Below, piece after piece: positions 2,974-39,971 of a stretch of 64,000 nt of DNA. Position 1 is the first letter of the stretch. Each line of letters starts with the position of its first letter. The DNA lies in IMG/VR virus record IMGVR_UViG_3300018412_000011; one strand, written 5' to 3'. The notes beneath the pieces were generated by a model. That model ran no database searches. It saw only the letters and a list, made by a program, of their open reading frames with translations, and was not told the origin of the DNA. The position numbers and the translations under genes were made by a program. Origin of the DNA: an uncultured virus (IMG/VR IMGVR_UViG_3300018412_000011) (taxonomy: Duplodnaviria > Heunggongvirae > Uroviricota > Caudoviricetes).

Positions 2974-3684
2974 CTATAATTTTACATTTGAATTAGATAT
3001 TCTTGAAAACAAATTGCCTCCCCCAAAGCTTTCTACTTCCTCAACTTGTTTCTTTTTTTGTTTTCTTTCTTTATCTACAACTTTTTTAATGTCTTGATAT
3101 TTGTTTTTCAATTCATCTCTTTTCATGTCCCAAGCCGCATCCATGCATCCACAATCAACTAACGCCTCAAACACTCTTGATGTGACTCTTCTATTATCTA
3201 CTTTATGAATAAACTCTTTTAAAGAATTAAATGGTTGATTCTCAATAATACTTTCAACCGCTTTTTCTCCCACTCCCTTTAGAATAGTTAATGGACATCT
3301 GATAAATGTATAAGATTCGCCTTTTTTATTTATTCCTTCTTCTAGTAAAAAGTCTGAACCGCTTTTATTAATATTTGCTTTTTTAATAACAATTCCCATA
3401 TTTTGTGCCTCTTTTATATAAGAGTCTAATTTCACATTCTTGTCATTATTCGCAATTTCAGCAGTTAATAAATTACACATAAATTCTAATGGGTAGTGAA
3501 CTTTCAACCAAGCTGTTTGGTAAGATATCAATCCATACGAAACTGAATGGCTATTCATCGTTGGAATTTGGATATTGTTTTGGGGATCATATATAAAATA
3601 ATTATGTTGATCCGACTTCATAGTCAAACTATAACTTTTTTGTTTTCCTAATGACTTAATTGATTTGATTTTGCACTTTTTCAT
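2974..3684 (-). CDS. dnaE: DNA polymerase III alpha, piece 3: C-intein 2 plus C-terminal extein (HhH region)
   Basis: N-terminal MKKCKIKSIKSLGKQKSYSLTM...HNYF...PTMN is a C-intein. It is followed by SHSVSYGLISYQTAWLKVHYPLEF and IKGVGEKA-type DnaE motifs. Confidence 0.92.
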   Translation of the reverse strand: MKKCKIKSIKSLGKQKSYSLTMKSDQHNYFIYDPQNNIQIPTMNSHSVSYGLISYQTAWLKVHYPLEFMCNLLTAEIANNDKNVKLDSYIKEAQNMGIVIKKANINKSGSDFLLEEGINKKGESYTFIRCPLTILKGVGEKAVESIIENQPFNSLKEFIHKVDNRRVTSRVFEALVDCGCMDAAWDMKRDELKNKYQDIKKVVDKERKQKKKQVEEVESFGGGNLFSRISNSNVKL

Positions 3685-4807: not shown

Positions 4808-4931
4808 TTTGTGTAATATGCACTTTTTCCGAATCCGACTTCAGATCTCCTTCTTTTTTGTTTGCTAAAAAATTGTAAAACAAAGGAGTAAGTCTGGAAA
4901 CAAGAATTCCAACCATACCAATAAATATTTG

Positions 4932-6608: not shown

Positions 6609-7566
6609 TTTTTTGTTTTTTTGTTTTCAATCTAATGAAGAAATTTTGAACTGCTTTGTTGTCGATAAATCTTATGTCTTTAAGGTAAGGGGTTACTTGC
6701 CTCCGAACATAAACATCTGATCGGACTAGAATACCTCTATTTTTCAACTCTTTTAAGGAGAAAACGATGTATTTTTCTCCGAATATTTTTTTTGCTGCAT
6801 TAAGTTTTTCATTATAATTATGAAAAACTTTATTTCCCTTTATTTCCACAAGATACGAATTATTTTTAGTTTTAATTTCAAAATCTGGATAATAATTTCT
6901 AGTTTTATTTGCTTTGTCTTTGTATGGTATTTTCTTATCGCTTCGCTTTATTTCAAGAATTTTTGAATTTTTAAAACAATATATTATATATAATAATTCC
7001 CAACTACTATGAAAATGAATTCCTCTTATGCTACCCGAAACAAACTGTTTCGAATTTCTTTTTTCAAAATATAAAGGATCTTCTTTAACCAATCGTTCGT
7101 GGGCTTTTCGTTGTTTTTTAATTACATCTTCTCTATTCTGAGCAATAAGTTGAGCCTTTGAATTATTCTCTTTCCACTCGTCAGAACTAGTTGCATATTT
7201 TAAGGCGCATTTTGAACATATTGGTTTCACACCACATATACTTCTTCTTCTCATTTTATTAAATTCCATCAAATCTTCTTCATCACATTCTTGACATGTG
7301 AATTTTATCAACTTTTTTGTCTTGAGAATATCTAAATAAGGTAAAATATCTTTATATTCCCAATATTCATTATTCCATTTTCCTTGTAAAGATTCTGGAA
7401 CGTCTTTTTTCAAACCATACCTCCCCCCCTTACTATGATTTTTTTTATAGCATTCTTTACATATCGGAACTCCACTTTTTACCTTCCTTCTTTTAAGCCC
7501 TCCTGGTTGTAATTTGAATTCTTTGCCACACTCGATACACTTATATTTTTTTGTTTTTCCTCTCAT
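6574..7566 (-). CDS. Free-standing Zn-ribbon plus TnsA-like PD-(D/E)XK endonuclease between split-intein halves
   Basis: Several CxxC pairs; HSSWEL...YYPDF...LVEIKG nuclease motif. Confidence 0.78.
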   Translation of the reverse strand: MRGKTKKYKCIECGKEFKLQPGGLKRRKVKSGVPICKECYKKNHSKGGRYGLKKDVPESLQGKWNNEYWEYKDILPYLDILKTKKLIKFTCQECDEEDLMEFNKMRRRSICGVKPICSKCALKYATSSDEWKENNSKAQLIAQNREDVIKKQRKAHERLVKEDPLYFEKRNSKQFVSGSIRGIHFHSSWELLYIIYCFKNSKILEIKRSDKKIPYKDKANKTRNYYPDFEIKTKNNSYLVEIKGNKVFHNYNEKLNAAKKIFGEKYIVFSLKELKNRGILVRSDVYVRRQVTPYLKDIRFIDNKAVQNFFIRLKTKKQKNENKKNIKKRI

Positions 7567-7633
7567 GTTTTAGTCCTTTGTCTCGTTTATTCAACGACAG
7601 AACTAAAACTTCCTCTACTAGATCCTAAAAAAA

Positions 7634-9064
7634 TTAAATTTCTAATTCTTCTATCTCATAAATATCATCATTTTCGGAAAGATCTTGTGCTTCCACCCAA
7701 ACTAATTCTCCATCTCGAACTACATGAATTTTGTGATTGTTTGTGCAAGAAATCACCTTGCCATCTTCAAGTTCTATGTCAAAAATTTCTTCTTCAACTT
7801 CATATTCAAACTTATTTAGAACTTCATGATATTGCCCGTCATAAGACAAAACAAATTCCCCCTTTCTAATTAATTGTATTTTTTTCAATTCATTTTTTGT
7901 CTGCACCAAGCTTTCTGGAACAAAACAACCACGACCAGGCCCGACCGCTATGTTTTGTTCGTGAGCATAACGAATCATATCCCAAAGAATTAAAAAGTAC
8001 TTAATGTATCCACATTTCTCAATTGCTTTTAATTCAAATCTAATTCTTTCTTTGTATTCTTGCTTGCCTTTGAAACCCAATTTAACAAAACCATCTTTAA
8101 TTAAAGCAATAAGATAGTCCATTTCTGTCTCAAATCCTTCTGGTAATTCAAAAGACGGGAGTAAATCGGCAGATTCTTCCATCAATGGTTTTGACGAAAT
8201 CTTATCAACAATTTCTTTTGTATTTTCCAAAAGCTCAGGAACTTTCTTATATTTATTCGCAATTTCATCTTTGCTTTTGATATAAAACTCATCACTATCT
8301 AAAGTAAATCGTTTTGGATCTTTAATATGATTGTGGGTTTGCATTGCTAAAAGAATATCATGGTACTCTGCATCTTCTTTTTTTGCATAATGACAATCAT
8401 TAGTCGCAATTGCTTTAATATTATGTTTTTTAGAGAGTTTAAAAAGAACTTTTGCCACATCTTCTTCTCTTTTCTTTTGCTCTTCATTATTAAAATATTC
8501 ATGAGCCATAATTTCAATATAATAATCATCTTTAAAAAGATCTTTATATTTTAAAATAACTTGTTCCGCAACATCAACATGACCTTGATAAATGTTCATT
8601 GAAACTTCGCTTGAAATGCAACCAGAAGTACAAATCAATCCTTCATGATATTTTTGCAACAAACCAAAATCAATCCTAGGCTTTTTATATTTGCCTTCAA
8701 TCTCAGCAATAGAAGAAAGAGTAAACAAATTTTCTAACCCCTTTCTGTTTTTAGCAATGATAGTGATATGGTAAATAGGCATATTTTTATCCCTAGATGT
8801 ATGATCTTCAGAGATGTAAAATTCAGAACCCATAATGGGCTTAATGCCTTTTTTAAAACATTCTTTCTGGAAACGGAACAAGCCAGCACAAGTTCCATGG
8901 TCTGTTAATGCTAGAGCATCATATCCATTGTCAACAGCGCCTTGAACCATTTGTTCGATTGAACCAAGCCCATCTAATAAACTGTAGTGAGAGTGGTTAT
9001 GCAAATGGGCAAAATAAATTCCCTTTGATTCTTGTGATTTTTTTTCTTCGCAATTATTACACAT
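7634..9064 (-). CDS. dnaE: DNA polymerase III alpha, piece 1: PHP domain plus N-intein 1
   Basis: HLHNHSHYSLLDG, TDHG and TNDCHY PHP motifs; ends GPGRG|CFVPES...CTNNHKI (N-intein). Confidence 0.95.
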   Translation of the reverse strand: MCNNCEEKKSQESKGIYFAHLHNHSHYSLLDGLGSIEQMVQGAVDNGYDALALTDHGTCAGLFRFQKECFKKGIKPIMGSEFYISEDHTSRDKNMPIYHITIIAKNRKGLENLFTLSSIAEIEGKYKKPRIDFGLLQKYHEGLICTSGCISSEVSMNIYQGHVDVAEQVILKYKDLFKDDYYIEIMAHEYFNNEEQKKREEDVAKVLFKLSKKHNIKAIATNDCHYAKKEDAEYHDILLAMQTHNHIKDPKRFTLDSDEFYIKSKDEIANKYKKVPELLENTKEIVDKISSKPLMEESADLLPSFELPEGFETEMDYLIALIKDGFVKLGFKGKQEYKERIRFELKAIEKCGYIKYFLILWDMIRYAHEQNIAVGPGRGCFVPESLVQTKNELKKIQLIRKGEFVLSYDGQYHEVLNKFEYEVEEEIFDIELEDGKVISCTNNHKIHVVRDGELVWVEAQDLSENDDIYEIEELEI

Positions 9065-10448: not shown

Positions 10449-10795
10449 GGGGATGATTGGAATCGATTCATATCGAAATAGCACTTTTGCATGGAGAATT
10501 CCATAACTTCTATAAAATATGGATAAAACTAAACGACAAAAGTTTAGAAATAGCTGCTTAAACAAAGCAGTTCGGGAAATAAGTAGATTATCTTAGTATC
10601 TTAAAATACCGTAAAATAACAAGATGGATTAAGAAAGTCCTTCTTTCTTTGACTTCTAGCAAAGACTAGATGCATTCTGATAGAAGAATCAGACAGAGTT
10701 TGTTTATGTCTCTGCTAACAAATAAACTAACCTTGTGAATGATAAAGTGTGGTTTCATAGAGAAGAAGGGAGTTCGAATCTCCCCATCTCCACCA
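10449..10795 (+). ncRNA. ssrA: tmRNA
   Basis: Acceptor stem GGGGATG/CATCTCC-ACCA with G3:U70, T-arm GGGAG-TTCGAAT-CTCCC, tag frame ...LNDKSLEIAA-stop at 10529-10561. Confidence 0.95.
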
Positions 10796-11610: not shown

Positions 11611-11749
11611 ATATGCTCCGTTTAATTGTTGTTATTAATATAGATAAGAATAATAAAAAAACAAGAAAAGATTCGAAAAAATTGGAAACTTCATTTAAAA
11701 AATTCCAATTTTTTCGAATCTTGCAACTTTTTCGAATCTTACAACTTTT

Positions 11750-12259
11750 TCAAATATCGTCGCCTTCTTCTGTATCTAATCCAGGTCTTAAATCTAAATT
11801 AAATTCAACATCTTGTTGCAACAAATTAGGAATAAGAGCAGGATCTTTTCGATTCCAATTAATTCCAATTGCATCAAACAAAACATTAAACCCTATGCAA
11901 TCGGGAGAATTCTTTTTATCGGGATCAGGAGTAATTTCCAAAAGTTTTTCAGTTAAAACAATTAATCTGACACTTTCGCTCCAAAAATTCCAATCGCTTG
12001 CATATAATTCAATAATATATCTAGTTGGGATTTGGTGTTTTTGGAATGCAGCTTTTTCAACTCCTTTGATATTTCTTAGTTTAGCCCATGTGGGATCTTT
12101 TTCTACTGATTTGTCAGTTCTTTCAGAATTATTCACTCCATAAACTGCAATTTGCTCTGGACGAATTGCCCAAAATAAATCAGGATATTTCTCTACTAAC
12201 ATTTTAATTTTATTATTTGCTTCTTCAATTACTTCGTATGTTCTCGGTGTTCGTGCCAT
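11750..12259 (-). CDS. Hypothetical protein, possibly of phage metallopeptidase-like fold (no HExxH)
   Basis: Likely start MARTPRTY after AGGAG; YIIEL...W...LIVL pattern. Confidence 0.45.
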   Translation of the reverse strand: MARTPRTYEVIEEANNKIKMLVEKYPDLFWAIRPEQIAVYGVNNSERTDKSVEKDPTWAKLRNIKGVEKAAFQKHQIPTRYIIELYASDWNFWSESVRLIVLTEKLLEITPDPDKKNSPDCIGFNVLFDAIGINWNRKDPALIPNLLQQDVEFNLDLRPGLDTEEGDDI

Positions 12260-12626
12260 GTATTTCTCCTTTTGTTTTATATTGAGTTTTAACAAGTCTT
12301 TGAACTTGTAAATACGCATTACAAGCTTTTTGGCTTGTTATTTATTACTTTCTTCATTTTTTGTTCTAGAATAAGATACAAACTGTTTAACTTGTTGTTA
12401 AATAATTTTCTTCGTTCTTCGCGACAAACAACAACTCTTTCACAATACTTAATGTCTTTTACCAAATTAAACTTATTGTGTTTTAAAAGGCATTTTTCCG
12501 CCACAACCATATTCCCTCTCTTTGCCATATATAGAGTTACCAATATTCCTAACAGTACATCCAAAATTATTTAATTTCTTTCAACTATCTAATAACTTTG
12601 CCTATTTTGCACTATAATAACTCAAG

Positions 12627-13352
12627 TCAAACTTCAAAAATTGAAATTTTTCCATTTTCTAGTATGGCATAATGATTATTGCAAGTGTCAATACAATAGT
12701 TGCCATTTATTCTAACTCTATCTGCACTCGTATGACCCACAACTTGAGGTAAACCTTCAATGTATTCACAATTGTCCCAATCAAGCCATAATAAATGACC
12801 CAAAGGTTTCGATCCCCCTCTTTTTTCTCCTATGTCATAAAATTCAGATTTATAAAGAGCCATATGTGGCTTTAATTCATCCCATTTTTGGCTAATTTCA
12901 ACAAGTTGATCTTCAATAGAGACAAAAGGCTTTAATTTGTTTGGGTGAAGACCAGCATGAGAAAACAAAACACCTTCTTGAAAATGAAACAACTTTGTGT
13001 TGAAAAAAAAGTCTTTCATTTCCATCTTTTTAATTTGTTTGGCTCTGTTTCTAGAATAACCAGTGCAAGAATAGATTTTGGATTCTGATCTTCTACCCCA
13101 GTTACAAGAATGTTGTATTTCTTCAAAATAGGGAACATCATGATTCCCAATCAACCATATAGCCTTATCTCCTAATTGACTCTTCTTTGCCTTCAACCAA
13201 ATACATAATTCATTAGTCCCAACAGCATCAGGGTCTTTATAGAAATCAAAATAATCTCCTAAAAACACAACCTTGTCAAACGTTTCTTTATCAAGAATCG
13301 CTTGTGCTTTATGGATTCGATGATGAATATCTGATATTATTAAAGTTCTCAT
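12627..13352 (-). CDS. Calcineurin-like metallophosphoesterase
   Basis: DIH, GDYFD, GNHD, HAG and GHT motifs. Confidence 0.9.
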   Translation of the reverse strand: MRTLIISDIHHRIHKAQAILDKETFDKVVFLGDYFDFYKDPDAVGTNELCIWLKAKKSQLGDKAIWLIGNHDVPYFEEIQHSCNWGRRSESKIYSCTGYSRNRAKQIKKMEMKDFFFNTKLFHFQEGVLFSHAGLHPNKLKPFVSIEDQLVEISQKWDELKPHMALYKSEFYDIGEKRGGSKPLGHLLWLDWDNCEYIEGLPQVVGHTSADRVRINGNYCIDTCNNHYAILENGKISIFEV

Positions 13353-13944: not shown

Positions 13945-14020
13945 TGGTGCTTGTGGTGGGATTCGAACCCACACTCTCAGAAGGTTAGAATTTCTGGCTC
14001 TACCATTGAGCTATACAAGC
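13945..14020 (-). tRNA. tRNA with CUA anticodon (amber suppressor candidate)
   Basis: 76-nt cloverleaf GCTTGTATAGCTCAATGGTAGAGC-CAGAAA-TTCTAAC-CTTCTG...GTGGGTTCGAATCCCAC...ACCA. The stem pairs only with CTA at 34-36; there are A:C mismatches at 7:66 and 31:39. Confidence 0.75.
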
Positions 14021-16155: not shown

Positions 16156-16812
16156 CTATCTTCGCTCCCAAGCATTTATTGCACTAGAAAATCTAGGTTC
16201 CGCCAAACCTGTGCCAAAAATCCAGAAAAAACCCTCATATTCCCTGAATCCGTAAGAGCCAAGTTCCAATATATCTGAACCGATATCTACACTTAAATCA
16301 ATAACAGCATTATTAACCAAGTCTCTATAAGAATGTCGATTCAAAAAACTAAAAAGATCTTCGAGACTTTTAAATTGTTCTGTAGATTTTCCCCTTTTTT
16401 CATTTTTCATTTCAATAAAAAACAAGATGTCTGCATATCTTGAGAAAAAATTCCAAGCTGAATGAAGCATCCATAATAAATCCTCTTTGCTTTCAGACTG
16501 GTTATGAATTAATTCATTTTTAAGAAAATACTTGGCGTGGTCTTTATTAAAAGAATCTTGAAACCTAAAACATGGAGTAACAGTTTGGAATCTCCCTTTA
16601 GGCAAAAACCCCTTTACCATTAAATATAAAAAAGATTGTTCTCCTGATGCTACTAAAGTTTTTTTAGTTCCCTCTATTAAAGGAGAGGGGACTGGATGAG
16701 GATTAGTGATTTCAGAAACTTGAGAATTAACCGTCCAAGGAGACTCTATTCTTATGAATTCTTCTGACTCATAATGCAATATTGAATCTTGAATGTTCTG
16801 ATAATTAATCAT
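16156..16812 (-). CDS. Class II aminoacyl-tRNA synthetase-like catalytic domain (stand-alone)
   Basis: Motif 1-like FIRIESPW, motif 2-like TPCFR...HAKYF, ELGSYG and motif 3-like WIFGTGLAEPR; no anticodon-binding domain. Confidence 0.7.
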   Translation of the reverse strand: MINYQNIQDSILHYESEEFIRIESPWTVNSQVSEITNPHPVPSPLIEGTKKTLVASGEQSFLYLMVKGFLPKGRFQTVTPCFRFQDSFNKDHAKYFLKNELIHNQSESKEDLLWMLHSAWNFFSRYADILFFIEMKNEKRGKSTEQFKSLEDLFSFLNRHSYRDLVNNAVIDLSVDIGSDILELGSYGFREYEGFFWIFGTGLAEPRFSSAINAWERR

Positions 16813-19313: not shown

Positions 19314-20312
19314 TTATTTAAACTTATCAATGATGTTTACGAAATCTTCACGAATATTGACTTGAACAGCTTTAGAAAGTTCTTTTTTAACTTTTTTTGC
19401 TTCTTTTTCATCAATATCTTGTTCAATTTCTTCTTCGAACTCTCTGCGATATTCGTCAATAATATCTACAATGTATGTTCCCATTAGGGGGCCAAACTTC
19501 TTTTCATCAATATGGTCGAACTTAGACACAACAGCATTACGCCTATTCTCATTAACACAACCTAAAAGCCAATTCAATTTTTCTTTGGCTTTTTCAGAAA
19601 GCTTAATATCCTCTTTTAACTTTGCACTTTTGTTTTTCCCATTTTCTTTGAATTTTGCATTTTTATTTTTAAAAATAATTCTAGACCCAGTATTGAAAGT
19701 GCAATATTCAACTGGTTCAATAACAGTGCCTTCGGCAATATTTCCGTCAATATCAGGCAAGCCATAATACTTAGGAATGGTAGTTAGAAAATCATTAGGA
19801 TATTCAAGACATTCTTTCAAAGTACCTCTTTTTAGAATTTTTGCATAATGAAAATCAGTTTTTGAAAAATAAAATCCCCTATCATCAACATTTAAATGTT
19901 CACCATTTTTTACAATGTCAAATCCATAAAAATCATTATGAGGACAATATGAAACCTCTTTTTGAACTTTTTTGGTTCCTGGAGGAGAGACTATATCAGG
20001 ATAACCTCCTCCAAACCACTCCCCATAAACGGAAACAAATCCATCATTTCCCAAAAGGTCATAGAGTTTTAACATTCTTTCTTTAAGGGAATCAACATGA
20101 GAATTAATCCCATAGAAATTGCTTTCAATCCCAATAAACCCACTTCGGGATGCAAGGCGAAATTCGTTACCATCATAGTGCATGGATAGATTGCTGCCAT
20201 GAACTTTTTCGGTACAAACGAACTCTTGATTGGCTTTGCCTTCTTCGACAACTTTATCAAGATATTTTTGACGTTGTACATTTTCAATACTAGAGAATTT
20301 AGTGAAATTCAT
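19314..20312 (-). CDS. RNA ligase, Rnl2 family
   Basis: EKVHGSN (motif I), GEWFG, FDI, EGTV and FKNK motifs. Confidence 0.92.
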   Translation of the reverse strand: MNFTKFSSIENVQRQKYLDKVVEEGKANQEFVCTEKVHGSNLSMHYDGNEFRLASRSGFIGIESNFYGINSHVDSLKERMLKLYDLLGNDGFVSVYGEWFGGGYPDIVSPPGTKKVQKEVSYCPHNDFYGFDIVKNGEHLNVDDRGFYFSKTDFHYAKILKRGTLKECLEYPNDFLTTIPKYYGLPDIDGNIAEGTVIEPVEYCTFNTGSRIIFKNKNAKFKENGKNKSAKLKEDIKLSEKAKEKLNWLLGCVNENRRNAVVSKFDHIDEKKFGPLMGTYIVDIIDEYRREFEEEIEQDIDEKEAKKVKKELSKAVQVNIREDFVNIIDKFK

Positions 20313-29224: not shown

Positions 29225-29275
29225 TGGAACCCAAGATCGGGATCGAACCGATGACCTTTTTCTTACCCAAAAAGC
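29225..29275 (-). pseudogene. 3' fragment of tRNA-Thr(GGT)
   Basis: GGTAAGAAAAAGGTCATCGGTTCGATCCCGATCTTGGGTTCCA: T-arm, 3' acceptor strand and CCA present; D-arm and 5' acceptor strand absent. Confidence 0.65.
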
Positions 29276-30039: not shown

Positions 30040-30080
30040 TAAAAGCGCTTGTTGAAAAATTGTTTATGAAAAACGATTTG

Positions 30081-30151
30081 TGTCAAAAGTATGACTCGAA
30101 CTTACATCTTCCCCATACTAAGGGAAACTTCTGCCATTGAAATATTTGGGC
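30081..30151 (-). pseudogene. Degenerate tRNA-Thr(AGT)
   Basis: Anticodon arm TTCCC-TTAGTAT-GGGGA and TTCGAG loop; acceptor and T stems mismatched, no CCA. Confidence 0.55.
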
Positions 30152-30406: not shown

Positions 30407-30509
30407 TGGAACATGAGGTGGGCTATTTACCCTACTTCTCCGCCTTAACCTGGGAACCAAACGTGTTTCAACGCTCATTTCGAGCTTCAAAAATAAAAGC
30501 TTCTCATGC
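30407..30509 (-). ncRNA. tRNA-like RNA with enlarged centre, anticodon undetermined
   Basis: Acceptor GCATGAG/CTCATGT-TCCA, D-like GCTT/AAGC hairpin, atypical T-arm. Confidence 0.45.
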
Positions 30510-30642
30510 ATAAAATGTGCAAGCGGTAACTGTAAACTATCTCAACTCTTAAACCGACAGACTGTTATCTTTGTTCCAGACAAAGTTGCAGTAATTCAGA
30601 AAGCATCAATGATTTAATACTCAATCCCTTACTTGCGGAAAT

Positions 30643-30746
30643 TGGCGGGCCTGCTCTCACCCGAGTCAAACCACTTAAGTCTCTGTAATGGTGGAAGAGG
30701 GTCACATCCCCTATACACAAAACTTCAATGACAGGCAGGTTTCGCC
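30643..30746 (-). ncRNA. Structured small RNA candidate in the tRNA array
   Basis: Ends pair (GGCG..CCTGC / GCAGG..CGCC) and the sequence finishes in CCA. Confidence 0.4.
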
Positions 30747-30751
30747 TAAAT

Positions 30752-30859
30752 TGGTGAATGGGGCAAGATTCGAACTTGCGGCGACTTCTTAAACTCGTTT
30801 TTCGGACCTTTCCATCCATCATAGTTTAAGTACGGCTCTACCAACTGAGCTACACATTC
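30752..30859 (-). tRNA. tRNA-like gene with a greatly extended anticodon arm (identity undetermined)
   Basis: Normal acceptor, D (GCTCAGTTGGTAGAGC) and T arms with ACCA; about 32 extra nt around a CTTAAAC/GTTTAAG stem. Confidence 0.65.
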
Positions 30860-30866
30860 AAAAAAT

Positions 30867-30964
30867 TGGTGGATCGACTGGGGTTCGAACCCAGGACTCC
30901 AAGATTAATCATTTGCGCTATCTTACGCTGAAGTCTCGTACTCTACCAACTGAGTTACCGATCC
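30867..30964 (-). tRNA. tRNA-Lys(TTT)-like gene with a 22-nt insertion in the anticodon loop
   Basis: Removing 30909-30930 gives a 76-nt cloverleaf with CGAGA-CTTTTAA-TCTTG. Confidence 0.75.
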
Positions 30965-30967
30965 ATT

Positions 30968-31390
30968 TTAAATTTCGTAATCTTTTGCCCATCTAACCCC
31001 TATAGCTTGATTATTTTTAGAAGCCTCGACTCTTAATGTGGCTTGCTTAAAACCAACTTTGTCAACAGGAACAATATAGCATTTATTTAAGTCGGGACTA
31101 TATATTCCAAAAAGGTCAATTTGTCCTCTATAACTTTGTTTTTCATGCTTTGTAGAAGATCCTTCCGGAACATGATAAGTGGAACTACAACAAGGAAAAA
31201 CAAGAACTCCTTTTATAAGATTAGCTGTTTTTATTTGAACTCTTTCAAGACCATTGCCTCTGTCAATAACACAATCATATCTTTCACAATCTCCTAATAC
31301 ATCAGCTACAACCCATTCATTTTCTAGGCATTTCGCCATAAAATAAATTTCGCTAATTGTTCCCTTTCTTTTGGGTGCTTTCTTTTTCAT
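30968..31390 (-). CDS. PD-(D/E)XK endonuclease of the group I intron-associated (I-Ssp6803I-like) type
   Basis: GTISE, RYDCVID...RVQIKT and YRGQIDLFGIY motifs; lies between two tRNA-Lys genes. Confidence 0.8.
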   Translation of the reverse strand: MKKKAPKRKGTISEIYFMAKCLENEWVVADVLGDCERYDCVIDRGNGLERVQIKTANLIKGVLVFPCCSSTYHVPEGSSTKHEKQSYRGQIDLFGIYSPDLNKCYIVPVDKVGFKQATLRVEASKNNQAIGVRWAKDYEI

Positions 31391-31470
31391 TTAGTTCTCC
31401 TTGTTAAACCATGAGAATGGTTCTCTTTTGGTTTAAGGAATTCTTTCAAAAAATACAAAAAATTACAAAA

Positions 31471-31557
31471 TGGTGGGCGCAGAGGGAGTCGAACCCCCGT
31501 TGAGATTTTATTCTCGCGGCTTAAAAGGCCGATGCATAACCATTCTGCCATACACCC
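31471..31557 (-). tRNA. tRNA-Lys(TTT) with a long variable arm
   Basis: 87-nt cloverleaf; CGGC-CTTTTAA-GCCG; variable stem GAGA..TCTC; ACCA. Confidence 0.8.
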
Positions 31558-31615
31558 AATTTTAAAAAATTTCAAATTTCAAAGAACAATCAATTTTTGA
31601 GAAAAATTGTAAAGC

Positions 31616-31646
31616 AAAAAACCCGACCTTTCCAAGTCGGGTTTTG
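31616..31646 (-). terminator. Attenuator terminator of the Lys/Val/Thr tRNA operon
   Basis: AAAACCCGACTT-GGAA-AGGTCGGGTTTTTT; competing segment AGTTGGGTTTTG at 31666-31677. Confidence 0.85.
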
Positions 31647-31677
31647 AAAAACTATGTTGTTTAGACAAAACCCAACT

Positions 31678-31734
31678 TTAAGTAGTTTTAACTACCTTGA
31701 AAGTTTTTATGGTTTTGACTTTAACTAAGCTCAT
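31678..31734 (-). CDS. Leader peptide MSLVKVKTIKTFKVVKTT (Val/Lys/Thr sensor)
   Basis: 13 of 17 post-Met codons are Val, Lys or Thr; starts 9 nt after the -10 box. Confidence 0.85.
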   Translation of the reverse strand: MSLVKVKTIKTFKVVKTT

Positions 31735-31743
31735 GATGTAAAC

Positions 31744-31771
31744 AATATACTCTTTTTTCGAATTTATGCAA
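31744..31771 (-). promoter_or_regulatory. Promoter of the Lys/Val/Thr tRNA operon
   Basis: TTGCAT-N16-TATATT. Confidence 0.75.
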
Positions 31772-32846
31772 GACAAAAGTTCAATTATTTTTGTCCTCTA
31801 TCCAGAAGGAATCATTTTTTAAATGAGATGTAGGGACATTAAGACTAGTTGAAAAAACTTTTTCTTTTCCACATTTAAAACACTTTTCTTTTATTCTATG
31901 GACTCTTATTCCAGAACCTAGACCATAAGCCAACACAGAAAGACCTTCTGAAGTTTTATGAAATTTACATTTACATCTTTTGAATGGATTTTTCATTTTG
32001 TATCTAAAAAAATTTTCAAATTTATAAAAAGCTCCAAAAAACAACATGTTCCCAAATTTTAGGCTTTTCTGCCTTATTCCATTTGTCTGCCTCTACGTCT
32101 AAAATATACCAATTGACTTCTTCTATAACCCCTTCTCCAACCCTAACCTACTCCATAAAAATATCTCTAGCTTCTTCTAAAGAGGGGAACCAAGATCTTA
32201 CTCGACAACTATCTATCTTCCCCTCTCGTTTTTCGCTTTTCAGGATCAGAAGCAATAGTTGTTATAACATAAATTTCTTCTTTCATAACAAATTTAAAAT
32301 TCTTTGAGTTTCTCGATCATAATCTTCTATACTTTTTATGTTATCATTTTTGCGATGATTGTCAAACAGTTTTTTAAAATCTTTTTCTGATTCTCGGATA
32401 TGATCAAGTAATTCGGGTTTTTCTGAAACCTCATCTAAAGAAACGCCATACCAATCTTTAAAAATTTCATCAAGTTTTTTGTTAAATGCCATTGGAATCT
32501 CCTACAATTTTAATCTCGCAATCTACTTTGTCAATACGCATTTGACAATAACAAACCCATACATTTCTTTCTTCACATATTTTTAAAAGATATGCATTGC
32601 ATTCTGTTGTTGCCACTCCTGTTTTTTCTTCATAATTTAAGTTTTCAATTTTTGCTTTGCAATATCCAAAAAAATGAGAAACGAGAATTTCGTCACCTTT
32701 TTGTAAATCATTTAATCCACAAGAATGACTTTCAGAAAATGGCTTTAAATCGTAGTCTTTGTCCTCAAGAAGATTTAACAATTCTTGACTCAATGGCCAA
32801 ACGGGAGTGCCATAATGTTCCTTTATTGTCCAATTTAATTTACTCA

Positions 32847-33248
32847 TTATTTTAAAGAAAGTAAATATCTCAACTTTTCAAGTTGAGTAAGAATGTCATC
32901 TCTAATATTGATAATCCCCTTAGAACTATTCAATGCTGTTAATCCTTCAAATTTATAAATAGTTGCTTCCACAAAACTCACAATATCTTTCTCATTAATG
33001 TCTAAAAGAGAATCAATTTTACAATTCTTTTCCCCAAATGTAATCCTATGTGATCCTTGTAAATTTTCAATTAATTCATCAAAAAGGTCATCTAATCCCC
33101 CATAAATTTCTTCAAAAGCTTTGTGCTGGCTATATGATGTCGTTTGCCAATGCCATAATTTTAACTGACTTTGAACCCAAAGAATTAATTGTATATATTC
33201 TTGAATCAATAACATATGCTTTTTTGTAAAATTTGAATTGCAATCCAT
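32847..33248 (-). CDS. Ferritin/Dps-like four-helix protein
   Basis: HWQT.SYSQHKAF...D.LIE and LRYLLSLK motifs. Confidence 0.7.
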   Translation of the reverse strand: MDCNSNFTKKHMLLIQEYIQLILWVQSQLKLWHWQTTSYSQHKAFEEIYGGLDDLFDELIENLQGSHRITFGEKNCKIDSLLDINEKDIVSFVEATIYKFEGLTALNSSKGIINIRDDILTQLEKLRYLLSLK

Positions 33249-33913
33249 TTTTCTTTCCTTTTTATATTTTATAAATTGTATTAAAGATTATTCCTCAAGT
33301 CAAGAATTATTTTTGATAACTTTGAGTTTCTCCTCCAAACGTTTCAATCTCAACTTCATCATCAAATTCAACACTTTTTCCTCCAATTTGCTTCCATCGA
33401 TTTTGTTCTAACGAATGGTCATACCCCTTCATTTGAGGATGAACCTCTGGAGTGTCATCTAATTGAGGGTTTTGAGTAGGTGCATTTATAGCTTTTGAAG
33501 CAGAAGGGGTTTTACTCTTTTCTTCCCAAGCTCGATATACATTGGACATAGAATATTCTTCTATTGTTTTGTCTCTTGCATCAGCTTCTTCATCTGTGAA
33601 CTTTTGTTGATCAAAAAAAGCTTTTTGCAAATTACTTATCCCATTGGGTTCTGTCATTATGGTATCCTCTTTAATTCATTTTTCTCTTCCTCATCCCAAC
33701 AGATGCCCTCTAAAGCATCCAAAATTTCATCGGCATCTGCACCTGTTTCTTCTTCTAAATGATTCACAAGTCCTTTTAATGCTTTTTTAAAGGCTAAGTC
33801 TTGATTAGAGATATATTCAGTATGAAATTCCCTTGTGGTTTTTGGAATATATGAAGATTTTTGAGTTCTAATATGCTTTGTCAAAGGAGCGTCGGGATTT
33901 AATTTTAGATTAT

Positions 33914-34726
33914 TCATAATAGTTCCTTATTTATATGTTTTAATGAATTATCAAAATTAGCATAAAAACGAAAAGGGTCAATCAAAGACAATCCACTCAT
34001 TTCTCCACTATTAAGTTCAATGACTATCCACTCTCCATTTTCTTTTTCCCCAACATCAACAACAAAAAAATTGGTTTTCTCTTTTACAATATTAGAAATT
34101 TTATTGACCAAATCAAAACATTCCACAGGAGGTTGTTCGTAAGGTTGACAATCAGGTTCGTCTGCCCAATAATAACCATAATCAATGATTTGATCTTTTA
34201 AGAGAAAAAACCTCCATTCATTCGTCACAGGCAAACCATTCATTCCATCCATAAATTTTCTTAATTTAACAAATTCTCTTACAACCACTCCTTGATCTCT
34301 GACTAAAGAATCATCCATTAATCTTGATACAATTCGAGTGACATCATTTTTGCTAGGAGCATACATTTGATGTTTCCATTGAAATTTTCTAGAATTCGTT
34401 CTTCCTTTCACTATATATTCACCCTCTGGAAGATTTGCCCATTGAAACCATGTTTGAGGAGTAAATTCTTTAATGTCCTCATAATAATCAAAATTAGCAA
34501 TATACTGATGTTGCCTATAACTATTAACTAACCTTGAATTATTTAAAGCCAACTCTTCTCCCAATTCTTTTCTGAATGGAAGAACTGAATATCTCCCAAA
34601 AACAAGATGGTTCGAAGGAATTTCACTTCTAAATCTATAAACAGGAAACGACAAAGTTTCTTTGGCAATTTCATATTCTTCTTCAAAATCTTCAGAAGCT
34701 CTAAATAAAAAACAAATGTTTTGCAT
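33914..34726 (-). CDS. ATP-grasp domain protein
   Basis: VVVREFV, NEWRFF and FFVVDVG...WIVIELN motifs. Confidence 0.8.
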   Translation of the reverse strand: MQNICFLFRASEDFEEEYEIAKETLSFPVYRFRSEIPSNHLVFGRYSVLPFRKELGEELALNNSRLVNSYRQHQYIANFDYYEDIKEFTPQTWFQWANLPEGEYIVKGRTNSRKFQWKHQMYAPSKNDVTRIVSRLMDDSLVRDQGVVVREFVKLRKFMDGMNGLPVTNEWRFFLLKDQIIDYGYYWADEPDCQPYEQPPVECFDLVNKISNIVKEKTNFFVVDVGEKENGEWIVIELNSGEMSGLSLIDPFRFYANFDNSLKHINKELL

Positions 34727-34748
34727 AAACCATTATACGACAAAGACA

Positions 34749-35520
34749 AAAAAAATGAAGCAATATTTTTCAGTATTGCTTCAGGTATAGGATGAGATTA
34801 CTCCGTTAACAAGGGTCCATTTGCAAACTTATTTTTTATTTGCGTATCCACTGTTTTACCAGTTGACCCTCACATTCGCCTTTTTAAATTGGAGGCTGTT
34901 CCAATCATTATAGATTCTTCTGCAAAACTTTCGACTTCCGAAACTAGCTAGGTTCCAAAAATCTAGTTATTCTACAAACTCTTAAGCCTTGCGAGCTTAA
35001 AAGCCCCTGGAGATCCAGGCGTTGAATGCTTACCTCTACGATGGGACGGGATTATTGCTTTTGAAGTTTATTTGGATTTAAACCAAGTCTTCATGACTTA
35101 TATTACTCAATTGTGAAATCCGCACCCGCCCATCTGTTTCGCTTCTTTCGAAACAAAATGCAGAACGAATCTCTATCCTCGTCTTGCGTGACGTTTGGAC
35201 GCTTTTCTAGGATTCCCCCTGACCTTTTAACGTCAGTAATCTTCCTATCAAGTTGCATGCAGCCATTAAAACGCAAATAATTTTGACCGTATGCTTACCC
35301 TTTGACCAACTCTTCTTTCTCTATCTAGATTACCATTCGGCATTTCCAGAGGAACTTTCGTTCTTTCGATACTCGAAAAGAATCTCCCCTTGTGGAAAGA
35401 ATTCTAGTCTCGGCTTGCATCAGTGACCTTTTCCAAGGCGATCTACGTCTTGAGTGCGTAGACCTTTTTTATATGTTGCCATATATCTATCTTCCCCGAA
35501 GGAGGATGTGATACCACCCT
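34749..35520 (-). ncRNA. Large (~770 nt) structured ncRNA, GOLLD/ROOL-like candidate
   Basis: ORF-free, GC-richer, many GNRA-capped hairpins; own promoter (35583-35610), boxB/boxA-like leader (35535-35565) and terminator (34749-34782). Confidence 0.7.
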
Positions 35521-35582
35521 TAAATCTATTTTTTTAGAGAACAATGTTGGGTTTTTATGTCCAACTTAAAATTTGTACGAAC

Positions 35583-35610
35583 AATATACCTGGTTTTTCA
35601 ATTTATGCAA
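35583..35610 (-). promoter_or_regulatory. Promoter of the large ncRNA
   Basis: TTGCAT-N16-TATATT, identical boxes to two tRNA-operon promoters. Confidence 0.75.
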
Positions 35611-36464
35611 GAACTTTTTCATTTTCTTTCGACTCAAAATTTTCATTCGAAAATTAGACCATCCAACTTTTCAAAAGCAATGTGGTTTTTCTTGAAGCTT
35701 TAATACTAATTTGTATGAAGGGATATTCTATCATAATTAATTTTCAACTAGATCAGCATATATCTTTTCTAAAGCACAATCCACTTTCTCAAGTTGATTA
35801 TAATATTGAGTTTTATCTTCCCCTGATTGCAAATTAGCATAAGCAATATTGTCTACAATTTTATTCCTGTGCTCTTCTAAAACCTTTAATTCTTCTATGC
35901 AATTTTTATTCTTTTCTCTTTTTGAATGTTCAATTTTGCTTTTCAAAAGAGGCACAGATTTTACATCCCCTTTTTCCGAAACTATAGTTAACAAAATGTC
36001 TCCCCATTCAGTTTCCAAAATAGCAATTGCCTCACCCTTAATCTATTCTAGGGGTTCGCAACCATATCTTATTACTTCTTCATCGTTTTTGAAGCTAACA
36101 ATTTTACCCATAAGATATTCTTCATTTATTATATTTTTAACAATCATTTTGTTTTCCTTCCTTAATACTCCGAACAAGCCAAATAGCGAGGTTTAAAATC
36201 ATAAATATATAACCATTCCTCACATGTATGGGTAATCTTTTTGCCTTCAAAATCTATGGTTAAATTGTCTTTATCATTCAAGGTTGTAAGAAAAAGATCT
36301 ACTTCTTCTTCCCGTTCTTTAATTTCTTCTTCCCGTTCTTTAATGACGAGATCCCTTGCCGTTTCTGCATTAAGGGCTATTACCCAATGATTTACTAAAT
36401 GTTGTTCTGTCGCTCTAAACACTTTCATAATTTGAATACTACCATAAATGCAGTTCATGTAAAG

Positions 36465-36491
36465 AAAAAACCCCAACAAAAAATGTTGGGG
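36465..36491 (-). terminator. Intrinsic terminator after hsp20
   Basis: CCCCAACA-TTTTT-TGTTGGGG-TTTTTT. Confidence 0.75.
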
Positions 36492-36522
36492 AAAATGTCA
36501 AAACTAAGATGCTTTATTTAGT

Positions 36523-36993
36523 TTATTTAATCTCAATTAACCTTTTTGTTTCTTCCTTTTCTTTATAGGGAATCACAATGGTTAACAATCCATCTTTCAT
36601 TTCGGCTTTGATATCAACCTCATTAAGATTAGGATCTGTCAATTGATACGAATGAGAGAAGGATCTTTGGGTAATCCCCCTATACATCTCTGTTTTGTGA
36701 GAAGTATCTTCTTTAGCTTGAACTGCGGAAACCGTTAAAATCCCATCATCAAACTCAACTTTCACATCATCTTTGGTATAACCTGACAATGCGAATTTGA
36801 ATTCTAGGGCCAAAGGATTTCCTTCATCATCTTCGATTTTATTTAAATCGAAAGGTACGCCTCTCTCTTGAGAAGCGTATATCTTTGGCGACCAATGATC
36901 TCCTTTGAAAAAAGTTTCAAAGAAAGGATCATCAAAAGCGTCTGAATTAAAGACGCTAGGCATTCTTCTTCTGTATTTAGTTAATGTTGTCAT
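36523..36993 (-). CDS. Small heat-shock protein (Hsp20/IbpA-like)
   Basis: FALSGYTKDDV, RGITQRSF and AEMKDGLLTI motifs. Confidence 0.92.
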   Translation of the reverse strand: MTTLTKYRRRMPSVFNSDAFDDPFFETFFKGDHWSPKIYASQERGVPFDLNKIEDDEGNPLALEFKFALSGYTKDDVKVEFDDGILTVSAVQAKEDTSHKTEMYRGITQRSFSHSYQLTDPNLNEVDIKAEMKDGLLTIVIPYKEKEETKRLIEIK

Positions 36994-37350
36994 GTTTATC
37001 TCCTTTTCAGCTAGATGTTAAGTTTATATTCCTTCATAAGATTTCATTTGAAAAATCAAATGATGTTCAGACATATGAACTTAATTTTGACATATTTTTT
37101 ATGTTTTTCTGGAACACTCTTTCGACATGTTCCTAGAATGTATCGAATCAATCGACATATTCTTACCAATATTATACTTTAAAATGTTAAAAATGCAAAA
37201 AAATTTTTACAAAAATATAAACAGAACAACGTACCTGTCTTCCACCTCAAACTCTATTTGAAATATTCTTTCTTGCTTCTTAATTAATAAAAAAATATAG
37301 TTTTATTTGAATATATTTTACATCACATCTAACGTGTCGTAAAATATAAA

Positions 37351-37590
37351 ATGAAAACATATGTCAAAGAAAAAATAGAAGTAAGAAACTTAAACAAAGT
37401 CCAATGTGATGTTTGCAAAAAAGAAGCCAATATTGAAGATGTTGATGAAATGAGTTTTATTCAAGAGATGACTCATATTTCCTATACAGGAGGGTATGGA
37501 AGTATTTTTGGAGACATGAATAAAATTGAGCTAGATATTTGCGATAAATGCCTAAATGAACAGTTGGGGAATTTCATTAGAGTTAATTAA
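37351..37590 (+). CDS. Small Zn-ribbon protein
   Basis: CDVC...GGYGSIFGD...CDKC. Confidence 0.7.
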   Translation: MKTYVKEKIEVRNLNKVQCDVCKKEANIEDVDEMSFIQEMTHISYTGGYGSIFGDMNKIELDICDKCLNEQLGNFIRVN

Positions 37591-37591
37591 A

Positions 37592-37683
37592 TGGTAGGCA
37601 GAGTGGGACTCGAACCCACACTTCGTACACGATTAGTCAGAGTTTATAAGACTCCCGGCTTCACCAAATTTGCCTATCTGCCT
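37592..37683 (-). tRNA. tRNA-Ile(TAT) with a long variable arm
   Basis: Acceptor AGGCAGA/TCTGCCT-ACCA; GGAGT-CTTATAA-ACTCT; 19-nt variable region. Confidence 0.8.
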
Positions 37684-37694
37684 ATTTTAAAAAC

Positions 37695-37720
37695 AAAAAA
37701 CCAACCCTTTCGAGTTGGCT
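37695..37720 (-). terminator. Attenuator terminator of the tRNA-Ile gene
   Basis: GCCAACTC-GAAA-GGGTTGGTTTTTT; competing GGGTTGG at 37762-37768 inside the leader. Confidence 0.85.
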
Positions 37721-37747
37721 TTTAATGCATGGAAAAAAGAAAAACAG

Positions 37748-37816
37748 TTAACACATGGAATCCAACCCAAATAAAATTGAGTTAGCTATTCGTATGATGT
37801 TAATGATTTGCTTCAT
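37748..37816 (-). CDS. Leader peptide MKQIINIIRIANSILFGLDSMC (Ile sensor)
   Basis: Six Ile codons (ATC ATT ATC ATA ATA ATT); ATG 6 nt after TTGACT-N16-TATATT (37823-37850). Confidence 0.82.
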   Translation of the reverse strand: MKQIINIIRIANSILFGLDSMC

Positions 37817-37846
37817 GTCTACAATATACGCTTAAAAAGAAATAAG

Positions 37847-38347
37847 TCAATGATTTTCTCGTTCAATTTTTAATGTTTCTTTTATTTTGGGAATATCGAC
37901 CTCTTGTAATCCATGTTCTTCATTGATTAAGATATGATGCTTTTTCAATTTCTCATCTGAAGCATCTGGATCATCATCCAAAATCACAAAATTGGTTACT
38001 TCAGGATGTTCATCGAACCATGAATGAATTTCATAATATCTTGGAATATACTCTGAAAAATGAAAATATCTCCCTTTATATCCTTTAACCCGAATACAAG
38101 GAGTTTTGTCCCAAATATCAAAAACAGTTTTAACTGCCTTATATCCATCTTCTAAGTTTCTCCAAGTTGATGACAAAACAATTTTTGCATCAAATTCTTT
38201 TTGAATGTCTTTGACTATTTTTATACTTCCAGGATCAAAACCACTAATGGATCTATACACGGAATGATCTTTGGTTTTATCAAACAAATTGTCTAAATAA
38301 ATCCAATTATTAATTACTCCATCAATATCTAGAAATATAACTTTCAT
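37847..38347 (-). CDS. HAD-family phosphatase (RNA-repair-associated type)
   Basis: MKVIFLDIDGV, IVLSSTWR and FVILDDD motifs. Confidence 0.85.
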   Translation of the reverse strand: MKVIFLDIDGVINNWIYLDNLFDKTKDHSVYRSISGFDPGSIKIVKDIQKEFDAKIVLSSTWRNLEDGYKAVKTVFDIWDKTPCIRVKGYKGRYFHFSEYIPRYYEIHSWFDEHPEVTNFVILDDDPDASDEKLKKHHILINEEHGLQEVDIPKIKETLKIERENH

Positions 38348-39473
38348 ATTTTCGTCACTTAATCGCCCCAATAAGAAACCTTGTACCACCCATGACCCTG
38401 ATGTTCAATTAACCCATCATCTGCAAGTTCACTTATCCCTTGGTGAATTTGGGCTCTTGTCCATGTATCATTTGATTCAAGCAAATCATCACAAATATTT
38501 GACCGTTGGTTCCCTTTGTCAATATGATAGCGTATTCGCTTTTTTAGTTCACTTTGATCATACATATAAAAAGTCCAATTGCATATAAAATAATTTCTAT
38601 CATTATTTTCCTCTACAAAAGATTGCATTATTTAAAACCTTTTGTCAACTAAAATCTTAAATTATTTAAAGCACTCTAAGGTTTTAATCTCATTTCTTAC
38701 GATTGCACAAACAATTTCATCAAATGTTTCTTTAGAATATTTCCCATCTGGTAAATCACTTCCTCTTGTCCAAGTTTCTCCAACCAAAGGAGTTCTGCAA
38801 CTACTGATGCAACCTAAATATCCTTTATCTTTTCCATTCGGCAAAGTTGCAGAAATTCCATATTCGTATTCATTAGAATAGAATTTACACTTCACCCTCA
38901 ACCCTGATTCTCTTCCACATTCAAGAAAAAAACAAGATTTTTCAAAATTGCCATAAGGAATGATAGAAGACAACCATTCAATAAATTCTCCAAAACCTAG
39001 TTTGACCAAATCTTCTTTAGAAATTAGTTTGCCTTCATAACGTTTTTCAATCATTTCAATGGTGTGGCTTTTTCTTGTTTTTTCGTCACAAAGTTGAGGT
39101 ACTTTTGTTTCTAATGAACTTTCATTTTTCATTTTAATATCCTTGGTTTTCTTAATTGATTATACAAGATTTTACATTTATCACATTTAATTTTCATTTT
39201 ATTCTTTGAACGTCAAAAGTATAATCGGGACATTTATTCGCAACCGTATCTCCCCACTTTTCTTTTTCCTCATCGCCTGTTTGAGGAGAAAAAATATGTT
39301 TCTTTTTATGTAAAGAACAAATTCTTCCCATTCCATGTCCCACTGTCAAAAACTTACAATCCCAACATGATTTGTTTTCTTCTGTCCCAAATTTTTTAGA
39401 TGTGAAGGGCTTGTGCCATCCATATCCGTCTTCATCTACCCATATTGTCTTTTGCATAATGTTCTCCTTAAAT

Positions 39474-39553
39474 TGGAGTGCTAGACAGGAATCGAACCTG
39501 CTTTTACGTCTAGATTGGAAATCTAGGGACTCACCTTTCGCCTCAACTAGCAC
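39474..39553 (-). tRNA. tRNA-Gly(TCC)
   Basis: Acceptor GTGCTAG/CTAGCAC, U73, CTAGA-TTTCCAA-TCTAG; atypical D-arm. Confidence 0.8.
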
Positions 39554-39574
39554 ATGTTTTATTATACAGTAAAA

Positions 39575-39666
39575 TGGTGGGGCCAGACGGGATCGAACCG
39601 ACGACCTTCTGAATGCATCATTGTCTTTCGACGAATCAGACGCTCTCCCAGCTGAGCTAATCCCCC
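39575..39666 (-). tRNA. tRNA-Ala-like gene with a 16-nt anticodon-loop insertion; acceptor stem partly mismatched
   Basis: GGGGGATTAGCTCAGCTGGGAGAGCG start; removing 39618-39633 gives TCTGA-TTTGCAT-TCAGA; lacks G3:U70. Confidence 0.65.
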
Positions 39667-39700: not shown

Positions 39701-39779
39701 TGGTGGAAGTGACGGGTCTCGAACCCGCAAAACTCCGCATTGCAAGTGCGGTGCTTTACCGTACATAAGCTTCACCCCC
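39701..39779 (-). tRNA. tRNA-Ala(TGC)
   Basis: G3:U70, CCGCA-CTTGCAA-TGCGG, ACCA. Confidence 0.88.
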
Positions 39780-39836: not shown

Positions 39837-39867
39837 AAAAAACCCAATCTTTAGCGAGATTGGGTTT
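39837..39867 (-). terminator. Attenuator terminator of the Ala/Gly tRNA operon
   Basis: AAACCCAATCT-CGCTAA-AGATTGGGTTTTTT; competing GATTGGGTTT at 39886-39895 overlaps the leader stop codon. Confidence 0.88.
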
Positions 39868-39893
39868 CGGAAAAATCGACAATACAAACCCAA

Positions 39894-39971
39894 TCAGAAG
39901 GAGATACCTCCTGCCGCTGCGGCCCCGCCGTTTCCAATGTTTGTATAAATTTTTTTCAAGTTTTTAATCAT
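39894..39971 (-). CDS. Leader peptide MIKNLKKIYTNIGNGGAAAAGGISF (Gly/Ala sensor)
   Basis: GGA AAC GGC GGG GCC GCA GCG GCA GGA GGT; ATG 6 nt after TTGCAT-N16-TATATT (39978-40005). Confidence 0.88.
   Translation of the reverse strand: MIKNLKKIYTNIGNGGAAAAGGISF

Follow-up and report, generated by a model that had tools for sequence, protein, structure and literature searches.

Short anticodon-loop inserts with shared ends in two tRNA genes of a large freshwater phage

Two interrupted tRNA genes and their operons

The window analyzed here, a 64,000-nucleotide (nt) stretch of the uncultured virus record IMGVR_UViG_3300018412_000011, covers positions 62001-126000 of a linear virus record (G000; 135,411 bases, estimated to be 53% complete) and holds all 11 tRNA-like genes of that record. 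The window sequence was present in freshwater DNA runs and belongs to a large freshwater phage. Two of its tRNA genes, both on the minus strand, are interrupted within the anticodon loop by short inserts that share their ends. Gene A (30867-30964), delimited by Rfam, ARAGORN, and a cloverleaf check, is of the tRNA-Lys(UUU) type with an encoded CCA and is split at 34/35 by a 22-nt insert (30909-30930); gene B (39575-39666) is of the tRNA-Ala(UGC) type and is split at 33/34 by a 16-nt insert (39618-39633). A sequence-only reading of this DNA had placed the inserts at exactly these coordinates and held that their removal restores 76-nt tRNAs. We confirmed the coordinates and the restored length, though for gene B the length only and not a working tRNA: the anticodon loops comprise 29 nt in gene A and 23 nt in gene B with the inserts, and 7 nt within 76-nt frames once these are taken out. 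Rfam called A, B, and a third gene, C, all as tRNA (52.5, 37.8, and 38.8 bits, respectively). ARAGORN found all three with its intron option and missed all three without it; standard tRNA finders run without such an option miss these genes.

Contigs assembled from three runs that are a possible source of the window (X1, X2, and X3) span genes A and B with no differing letter and no gap inside the genes, and none of them contains a joint that skips either insert. Gene B was also unchanged on a low-depth contig from a separate study (X4). The identity of the inserts across the X1-X3 contigs, and of B in X4, therefore argues against an assembly artefact.

The two inserts have in common their first letter, C, and their last five, AATGA. 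The boundary proposed in the sequence-only reading additionally included a flanking TT and T, which add nothing because they are exon letters demanded by the tRNA. In 2 million random trials, two inserts of the same lengths shared at least six end letters in 0.13% (uniform composition) to 0.28% (genome composition) of cases, while 5-8% of random cores formed a 3-base-pair (bp) hairpin at the insert ends. Both inserts had been described as a small hairpin plus AATGA, which is accurate for the AATGA and, as regards the hairpin, for gene A. There, the hairpin was the best fold with the cloverleaf held, the insert ends pairing with U34 and with the insert's first letters, such that they form a short helix at the junctions in the constrained fold. 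For gene B, a GAAA-capped 3-bp stem is possible but disfavoured, with an A-like fold at -1.4 kcal/mol versus -6.8 kcal/mol for one in which the insert pairs over its 3′ end and the anticodon. The inserts differ in length and stem, and both anticodon loops retain every exon letter; the inserts are precise and have non-random ends. A 14/16 look-alike of the insert of B lies in non-tRNA DNA (35619-35634).

A shift of the junction by one base, giving the anticodons TCT or CGC, is formally possible, as the sequence-only reading had pointed out; comparison with other tRNAs largely fixes them as UUU and UGC. The nearest uninterrupted gene to A was a viral tRNA-Lys(UUU) (L526) with an identical 17-nt anticodon arm and 61/76 matching letters, followed by a second Lys(UUU) at 60/76, in an ungapped count, which puts genes with longer D loops at a disadvantage. 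Each of the 10 Arg(UCU) rows carries A20, the A after the D-loop GG, where gene A has U, and the leader upstream of A contains five Lys and no Arg codons. These three observations identify A as a Lys(UUU) gene with its split at 34/35 and disfavour an Arg(UCU) reading. A UCA reading is likewise disfavoured, since a UCA loop occurred in none of the 37 viral tRNA matches with A's stem, all of which have 7-nt loops. Without its insert, gene A shows 21/21 cloverleaf pairs, a Lys-type D loop and discriminator, and the features that tRNA identity rules demand of a functional tRNA-Lys(UUU), namely a complete cloverleaf, U33, a purine at 37, UUU, A73, and CCA. Moreover, the differences between its acceptor stem and those of relatives are paired changes.

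For gene B, all 120 viral tRNA matches with its stem had 7-nt loops, 70 of which read UGC and none CGC, and its 17-nt anticodon arm occurs uninterrupted in a relative (G004:C1:47204). B is on this basis an Ala(UGC) gene split at 33/34, and an Ala(CGC) reading is disfavoured. The D, anticodon, and T arms are retained. However, only four of seven acceptor pairs form, with mismatches at 5:68, 6:67, and 7:66, and G-C stands in place of G-U at 3:70. Among 491 CCA-bearing frames with 7-nt loops from the examined loci, 460 had seven acceptor pairs, 28 had six, two had five, and one had four, although the parser may under-count poor frames. G3-U70 is the alanine identity pair and was present in 70/70 uninterrupted Ala(UGC) relatives. 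Lacking both G3-U70 and a paired acceptor stem after insert removal, gene B could not, to judge from its letters, be a working alanine tRNA, whatever happens to the insert. Its four changes are all confined to positions 66-70, which points to a single recombination-like event rather than slow decay; over its 5′ part, B agrees with a relative at 32/33 letters.

Each interrupted gene has an intact counterpart on the minus strand of the same operon. Upstream of A is an uninterrupted tRNA-Lys(UUU) with a long variable arm (31471-31557), and directly upstream of B is an uninterrupted tRNA-Ala(UGC) with G3-U70 (39701-39779). The presence of an unsplit gene with the same anticodon in each operon renders A and B redundant. 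A long-arm Lys(UUU) is also found in the relative G001 (G001:C1:222437), which has long-arm Lys, Asn, Gly, Met, Glu, and Ile tRNA genes; within the window, tRNA-Ile(UAU) (37592-37683) has a long variable arm as well. The suggestion that both operons have leaders sensing the same amino acid as their tRNAs was borne out insofar as leader composition matches the downstream genes, with a sensing role predicted. The operon of A and C begins with a Lys/Val/Thr-rich leader open reading frame (ORF; 31734-31678; 18 codons, including five Lys, four Val, and four Thr) followed by a terminator (31645-31618), forming a predicted attenuator (31618-31734, minus strand). That of B begins with a Gly/Ala-rich leader ORF (39971-39894; 25 codons, with five Gly and four Ala) and a terminator (39868-39839), again a predicted attenuator (39839-39971, minus strand). 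A third tRNA operon has an Ile-rich leader (37748-37816, minus strand), also with a terminator. For all three operons (31678-31734, 37748-37816, and 39894-39971), ribosome-mediated attenuation of phage tRNA genes is predicted. A contig of the same depth carries parts of two of the leaders, which suggests a further leader-type tRNA operon in the remaining genome. Other tRNA-like sequences in the window include a Thr(AGU)-like tRNA in decay, which lacks CCA and has several of its pairs broken (30077-30151), a lone tRNA 3′ half with CCA (about 29225-29260), and a tRNA-Gly(UCC) with perfect acceptor and anticodon arms and an atypical D arm (39474-39553).

Removal routes, related introns, and distribution

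We compared the inserts to known removal geometries in all eight registers of each gene. The split sites, 33/34 and 34/35, are group I intron positions. Nevertheless, as the sequence-only reading had stated, the inserts are too short for group I introns, at 16 and 22 nt and without the catalytic core, which takes up some hundreds of bases; none of the 16 Rfam matches with E up to 1 belonged to a group I family. Of the group I U...G rule, only the 5′ exon U is present at the true register, where the last insert base is A; the register that has both would yield an AUU anticodon in A and A33 in B. The bulge-helix-bulge (BHB) of archaeal-type introns, as defined in PMC4090602, consists of a 4-bp helix flanked at the splice sites by two 3-nt bulges. 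This helix had one of four pairs at the true register in both genes, and at most two of four (A) and three of four (B) over the eight registers, so that a BHB intron was rejected. A 37/38 intron of the eukaryote or giant-virus type, which lies one base downstream of an unbroken anticodon, was rejected as well, as it would give C37 in B and UCA in A. RNase III-cut hairpins have about one turn of helix and cuts staggered by 2 nt; at the true register this geometry had 4/11 pairs in both genes, failing as a model for the inserts, while two bases further on there were 7/11 and 8/11 pairs, which would produce UCA (A) and CGC (B). Finally, a Lak-type intron with a nested tRNA-like element was rejected on account of the 16-22 nt length and lack of a T-loop motif.

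Comparison with described systems gave partial likenesses. Bacterial tRNA group I introns, such as that of Synechocystis tRNA-fMet with I-Ssp6803I, resemble the inserts in interrupting the anticodon region after a U (PMC1995217 and PMC4090602), and a PD-(D/E)XK endonuclease of the same Pfam family as I-Ssp6803I adjoins gene A. The inserts differ in their missing catalytic core, in ending with A and not G, and in that the endonuclease is free-standing, outside the insert. The short archaeal and eukaryotic-type introns are similar in size (12-25 nt in the archaeal range) and in protein-dependent removal (PMC4090602), and dissimilar in having a BHB and lying at 37/38; moreover, PF01974 was not detected in the 53% complete G000. 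Closest are the introns called "enigmatic" in tRNA genes of Lak megaphages (Devoto et al. 2019, PMC6784885), which likewise are not group I, lie in the anticodon loop of large-phage tRNAs, have alleles with and without the insert, and come without demonstrated splicing. The Lak inserts described there measure about 80-115 nt, are located on the 3′ side of the anticodon, and have a tRNA-like interior, in contrast to inserts of 16 and 22 nt at 33/34 and 34/35 with C...AATGA ends. Hence, the inserts of A and B are outside the group I, BHB, and 37/38 families, and by this comparison they would work like, at most, an unexplained phage tRNA intron of the Lak type.

With respect to enzymes, the sequence-only reading had proposed a search for a splicing endonuclease or RtcB, and had taken the encoded Rnl2, KptA, and phosphatases as a sign of protein-based splicing. 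In G000, 53% complete as noted, neither a splicing endonuclease (PF01974) nor RtcB, RNase III, or an AAA_33 kinase was matched, and PF01974 was absent from all five records searched, G000 among them. Among relatives, RtcB was present in two of four and a kinase over the cut-off in two of three. G000 does encode Rnl2 (window 19314-20312), an Rnl1-like ligase (G000 11689-12915), KptA, a HAD phosphatase, and metallophosphoesterases. These did not hold up as evidence of splicing: according to PMC7824862, such enzymes are general anti-defence repair enzymes of jumbo phages, and KptA is encoded in two of the three relatives searched, whose tRNAs lack such inserts.

The sequence-only reading had itself held that absence of the boundary motif from relatives, along with absence of a spliced product, would speak against it; the first half of this is what we found. 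No other carrier of the C...AATGA boundary was recovered in complete pattern scans of viral (59 hits), metagenome (64 hits), and GTDB (16 hits) sequences, using a type I variable loop pattern that misses other variable loops, long-arm tRNAs, and near-identical genomes. Nor was the boundary seen in the tRNA frames parsed from four relatives (94 Rfam matches, not all recovered by the parser). A scan of viral contigs for AATGAT plus a T arm, which covered 120 of about 230 stretches in 35/64 parts and gave 121 matches, contained none of the A/B type among the 54 listed after a pairing filter. Filled alleles were found in 0/120 matches with B's stem (55/64 parts) and 0/37 with A's stem, and blastn of the two arms against isolated phages returned no match for A and only chance matches for B. 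A survey of enlarged anticodon loops (12/64 parts, 121 matches) consisted mostly of giant-virus-type 37/38 introns and replaced arms lacking the motif. Among 96 large phage records (of 100, those searchable), none of 85 pattern matches had inserts with these ends; one of the 85 (G088) has U33 and a purine 37 around a hairpin, with neither CCA nor these ends. Archaeal introns with TTC...AATGAT were pattern-selected and proved to be ordinary 37/38 introns. Likewise, a literature search, with most subscription papers outside its coverage, turned up no account of phage tRNA anticodons that carry inserts of 16-22 nt. So far, then, this type of insert appears to be unique to this genome among the sequences scanned.

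Explanations for the inserts

The evidence splits: A resembles a true pre-tRNA, B is unworkable, each has an intact duplicate, and the inserts suit no known route of removal. The reading that we favour, with a probability of roughly 0.4, is that A and B are disabled spare tRNA genes hit by one small intron-like element. The two inserts would descend from this element, whose ends were presumably once constrained, and it would be tolerated here owing to the spare gene for each target. Both genes would be transcribed under shortage of the leader amino acids and trimmed like tRNA, yet would be neither re-joined nor decoding, leaving decoding to the unsplit neighbour copies. Gene B may then have lost its acceptor pairing in one event, namely recombination with another alanine-type gene, as suggested by the restriction of its four changes to positions 66-70. 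The inactivation of A would be recent because A shows no decay. Counting in favour of relics are the failure of B as a tRNA, the operon copies that serve both anticodons, the poor fit to every known removal route, the lack of other motif carriers in the scans above, and the decayed remnants in the same cluster (30077-30151 and about 29225-29260).

The putative driver of the proposed element is the PD-(D/E)XK endonuclease (PF11645; Pfam E 3.8e-26) encoded by a free-standing gene (30968-31390, minus strand) whose stop codon is 3 nt before gene A, and which might spare filled alleles. The protein had a weak match (E 0.013) to PDB 2OST, which is I-Ssp6803I. The gene of this founder of the family lies within a group I intron of tRNA-fMet (PMC1995217), and the title of a reference in that paper names the anticodon region of the tRNA gene as the target of the enzyme. 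The arrangement is akin to that of the free-standing homing endonuclease SegB, whose gene sits among those of the T4 tRNA cluster and which in T4 can spread the cluster by cutting tRNA-gene DNA (PMC2330249); SegB, in contrast to the PD-(D/E)XK protein here, is a GIY-YIG enzyme, and it reads the T loop. Among 41 loci of endonuclease relatives, 35 had a tRNA frame within 300 nt. Position beside a tRNA is thus the usual state in this family and is on its own no explanation. No transposase family came up among 173 ORFs scanned against Pfam, exclusive of two ORFs at locus borders.

Several observations weigh against disabled relics. None of the tRNAs adjoining the 41 endonuclease-relative loci has an anticodon insert, so that self-protection by filled alleles lacks comparative support. 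Gene A is flawless, with its 21/21 pairs, CCA, Lys-type D loop and discriminator, and paired acceptor changes. All exon letters are kept while the inserts diverge, as expected under selection for re-joining. The inserts have more of their ends in common than chance predicts, and in A these form a paired helix at the junctions. The phage encodes two ligases, KptA, and a HAD phosphatase, and with G000 only 53% complete, missing enzymes prove little.

Active protein-spliced mini-introns, as proposed in the sequence-only reading, are the second reading, held at slightly lower probability than disabled relics. Here, a nuclease of the host or the phage would recognise the paired ends and cleave on the 3′ side of U34 (or U33) and of the last A; a phosphatase and a kinase would heal the termini, the phage Rnl1 or Rnl2 would join them, and a leftover 2′-phosphate would be taken off by KptA. 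The outcome would be an extra tRNA-Lys(UUU) under lysine shortage, with B a recently broken copy. Exact restoration of the anticodon arms seen in uninterrupted phage tRNAs is consistent with this, as are the precision and non-random ends of the inserts, the flawless body of A, the encoded ligases, KptA, and HAD phosphatase, and the precedent of the unexplained Lak introns (PMC6784885). Conversely, no known nuclease geometry fits, a splicing endonuclease, RtcB, and a kinase were not found in the 53% complete G000, both products would be redundant, B could not be charged, and the A-like fold is disfavoured in B. Furthermore, the motif is absent from the viral, metagenome, and GTDB scans, and the repair genes are common in jumbo phages without such inserts (PMC7824862). 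The more specific proposal of a new splicing geometry, in which introns of 16-22 nt in the wobble region would be removed by a nuclease of a new family that reads the paired C...AAUGA, Rnl1/Rnl2 and KptA would seal, and the attenuators would act as the switch, we consider less likely than not. Were A spliced, it would represent protein-driven tRNA splicing in bacteria or phages unlike every geometry tested, and a 98-nt synthetic RNA with five phage proteins would make the Lak-type intron question directly testable.

Adjacent to A, gene C (30752-30859, minus strand) encodes a 108-nt tRNA-framed RNA with a D arm, a T arm, six of seven acceptor pairs, and CCA. The sequence-only reading grouped it with A and B as having a larger extension. 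The anticodon arm is indeed enlarged, consisting of a 7-8 bp stem with an inner hairpin, but there is no AATGA end and the insert is of a different type; a search by eye found no block whose removal gives a canonical frame. Gene C is an anticodon-arm replacement, separate from the inserts of A and B. It is alike in plan, not in sequence, to enlarged tRNA-framed RNAs in relatives, of which there are six of 120-137 nt in G001, four with a hairpin and CAGCAA, and two in G004. Such RNAs (117-137 nt overall) lie at G001:C1 195772, 198200, 282138, 282626, 315915, and 316051, at G004:C1 54059 and 54283, and in L581. The CAGCAA-like module and hairpin follow the D arm, and an anticodon-like hairpin then follows in several; one of these RNAs is directly upstream of an RtcB gene. 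They had only generic tRNA matches in Rfam, and a literature search returned nothing relevant to them. Next to gene C in the window, an RNA of ~103 nt (30407-30509, minus strand) with no Rfam match has a 7-bp acceptor-like stem and a CCA end, together with three hairpins, one of them T-arm-like. The ~250 nt between it and gene C (30500-30750, minus strand) are overlapped by an 85-codon ORF without a family match and may be a further structured RNA.

These enlarged RNAs bear on the proposal that A and B are unspliced, non-decoding tRNA mimics, made under amino-acid shortage, which would distract anticodon nucleases or tRNA sensors and resist anticodon cleavage. We regard this as unlikely. The replaced arm in the tRNA frame of gene C beside A and the sets of such RNAs in relatives are in its favour, as is the finding that tRNA-Lys anticodon arms are defence targets and that phage variants resist cleavage (PMC11464382); B, too, keeps its D, anticodon, and T arms but not its alanine identity pair. 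Against this, a decoy would have no need to keep the two halves of the anticodon exactly, the CAGCAA module found in the relatives' RNAs is missing from A and B, and no second genome conserves the inserts. Under either relics or decoys, the inserts sit in redundant, partly broken genes, and the RNA-repair genes are no proof of splicing. Two independent chance insertions, or repair scars, with meaningless shared ends would agree with the lack of other motif carriers and with the look-alike at 35619-35634, but are very improbable given the 0.13-0.28% likelihood of the shared ends and the rarity of such precise inserts, none with these ends having occurred among the 85 matches in 96 large phage records.

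Genome context

The closest reachable relatives were large phages with a tandem SpoVS protein, at 54-57% identity. A search with Hsp20 recovered no close relatives, a RecA search found nothing above 60%, and the tail tube protein had two distant homologs; only distant SpoVS-clade phages were reached (5/6 records searched). The tandem SpoVS protein itself (L123:18051-18713; G000:C1 58051-58713) has 267 database relatives and is a handy clade marker for these large phages.

The window encodes DNA polymerase III alpha with inteins, several sigma-70 factors, a transfer-messenger RNA (tmRNA), and a GOLLD-like RNA. The polymerase (2974-9064) occupies five ORFs, which include intein, LAGLIDADG, and TnsA-like endonuclease domains. 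The tmRNA (10449-10795) and the GOLLD-like RNA (34789-35173; 137 bits, under the gathering score) are both on the plus strand, opposite to the run of genes. A 218-amino-acid protein (16156-16812) matched a histidyl-tRNA synthetase phage family. In the run contigs, one base at window position 35465 was absent in all four runs, and position 33741 was T in three; these are likely two small assembly errors or strain differences. The standard genetic code fits the reading of the window, with no indication of an alternative code. A tRNA with a CUA anticodon, resembling an amber suppressor, lies directly after the KptA gene (13945-14020); despite its presence, TAG is the stop codon of 13 of 169 long ORFs.

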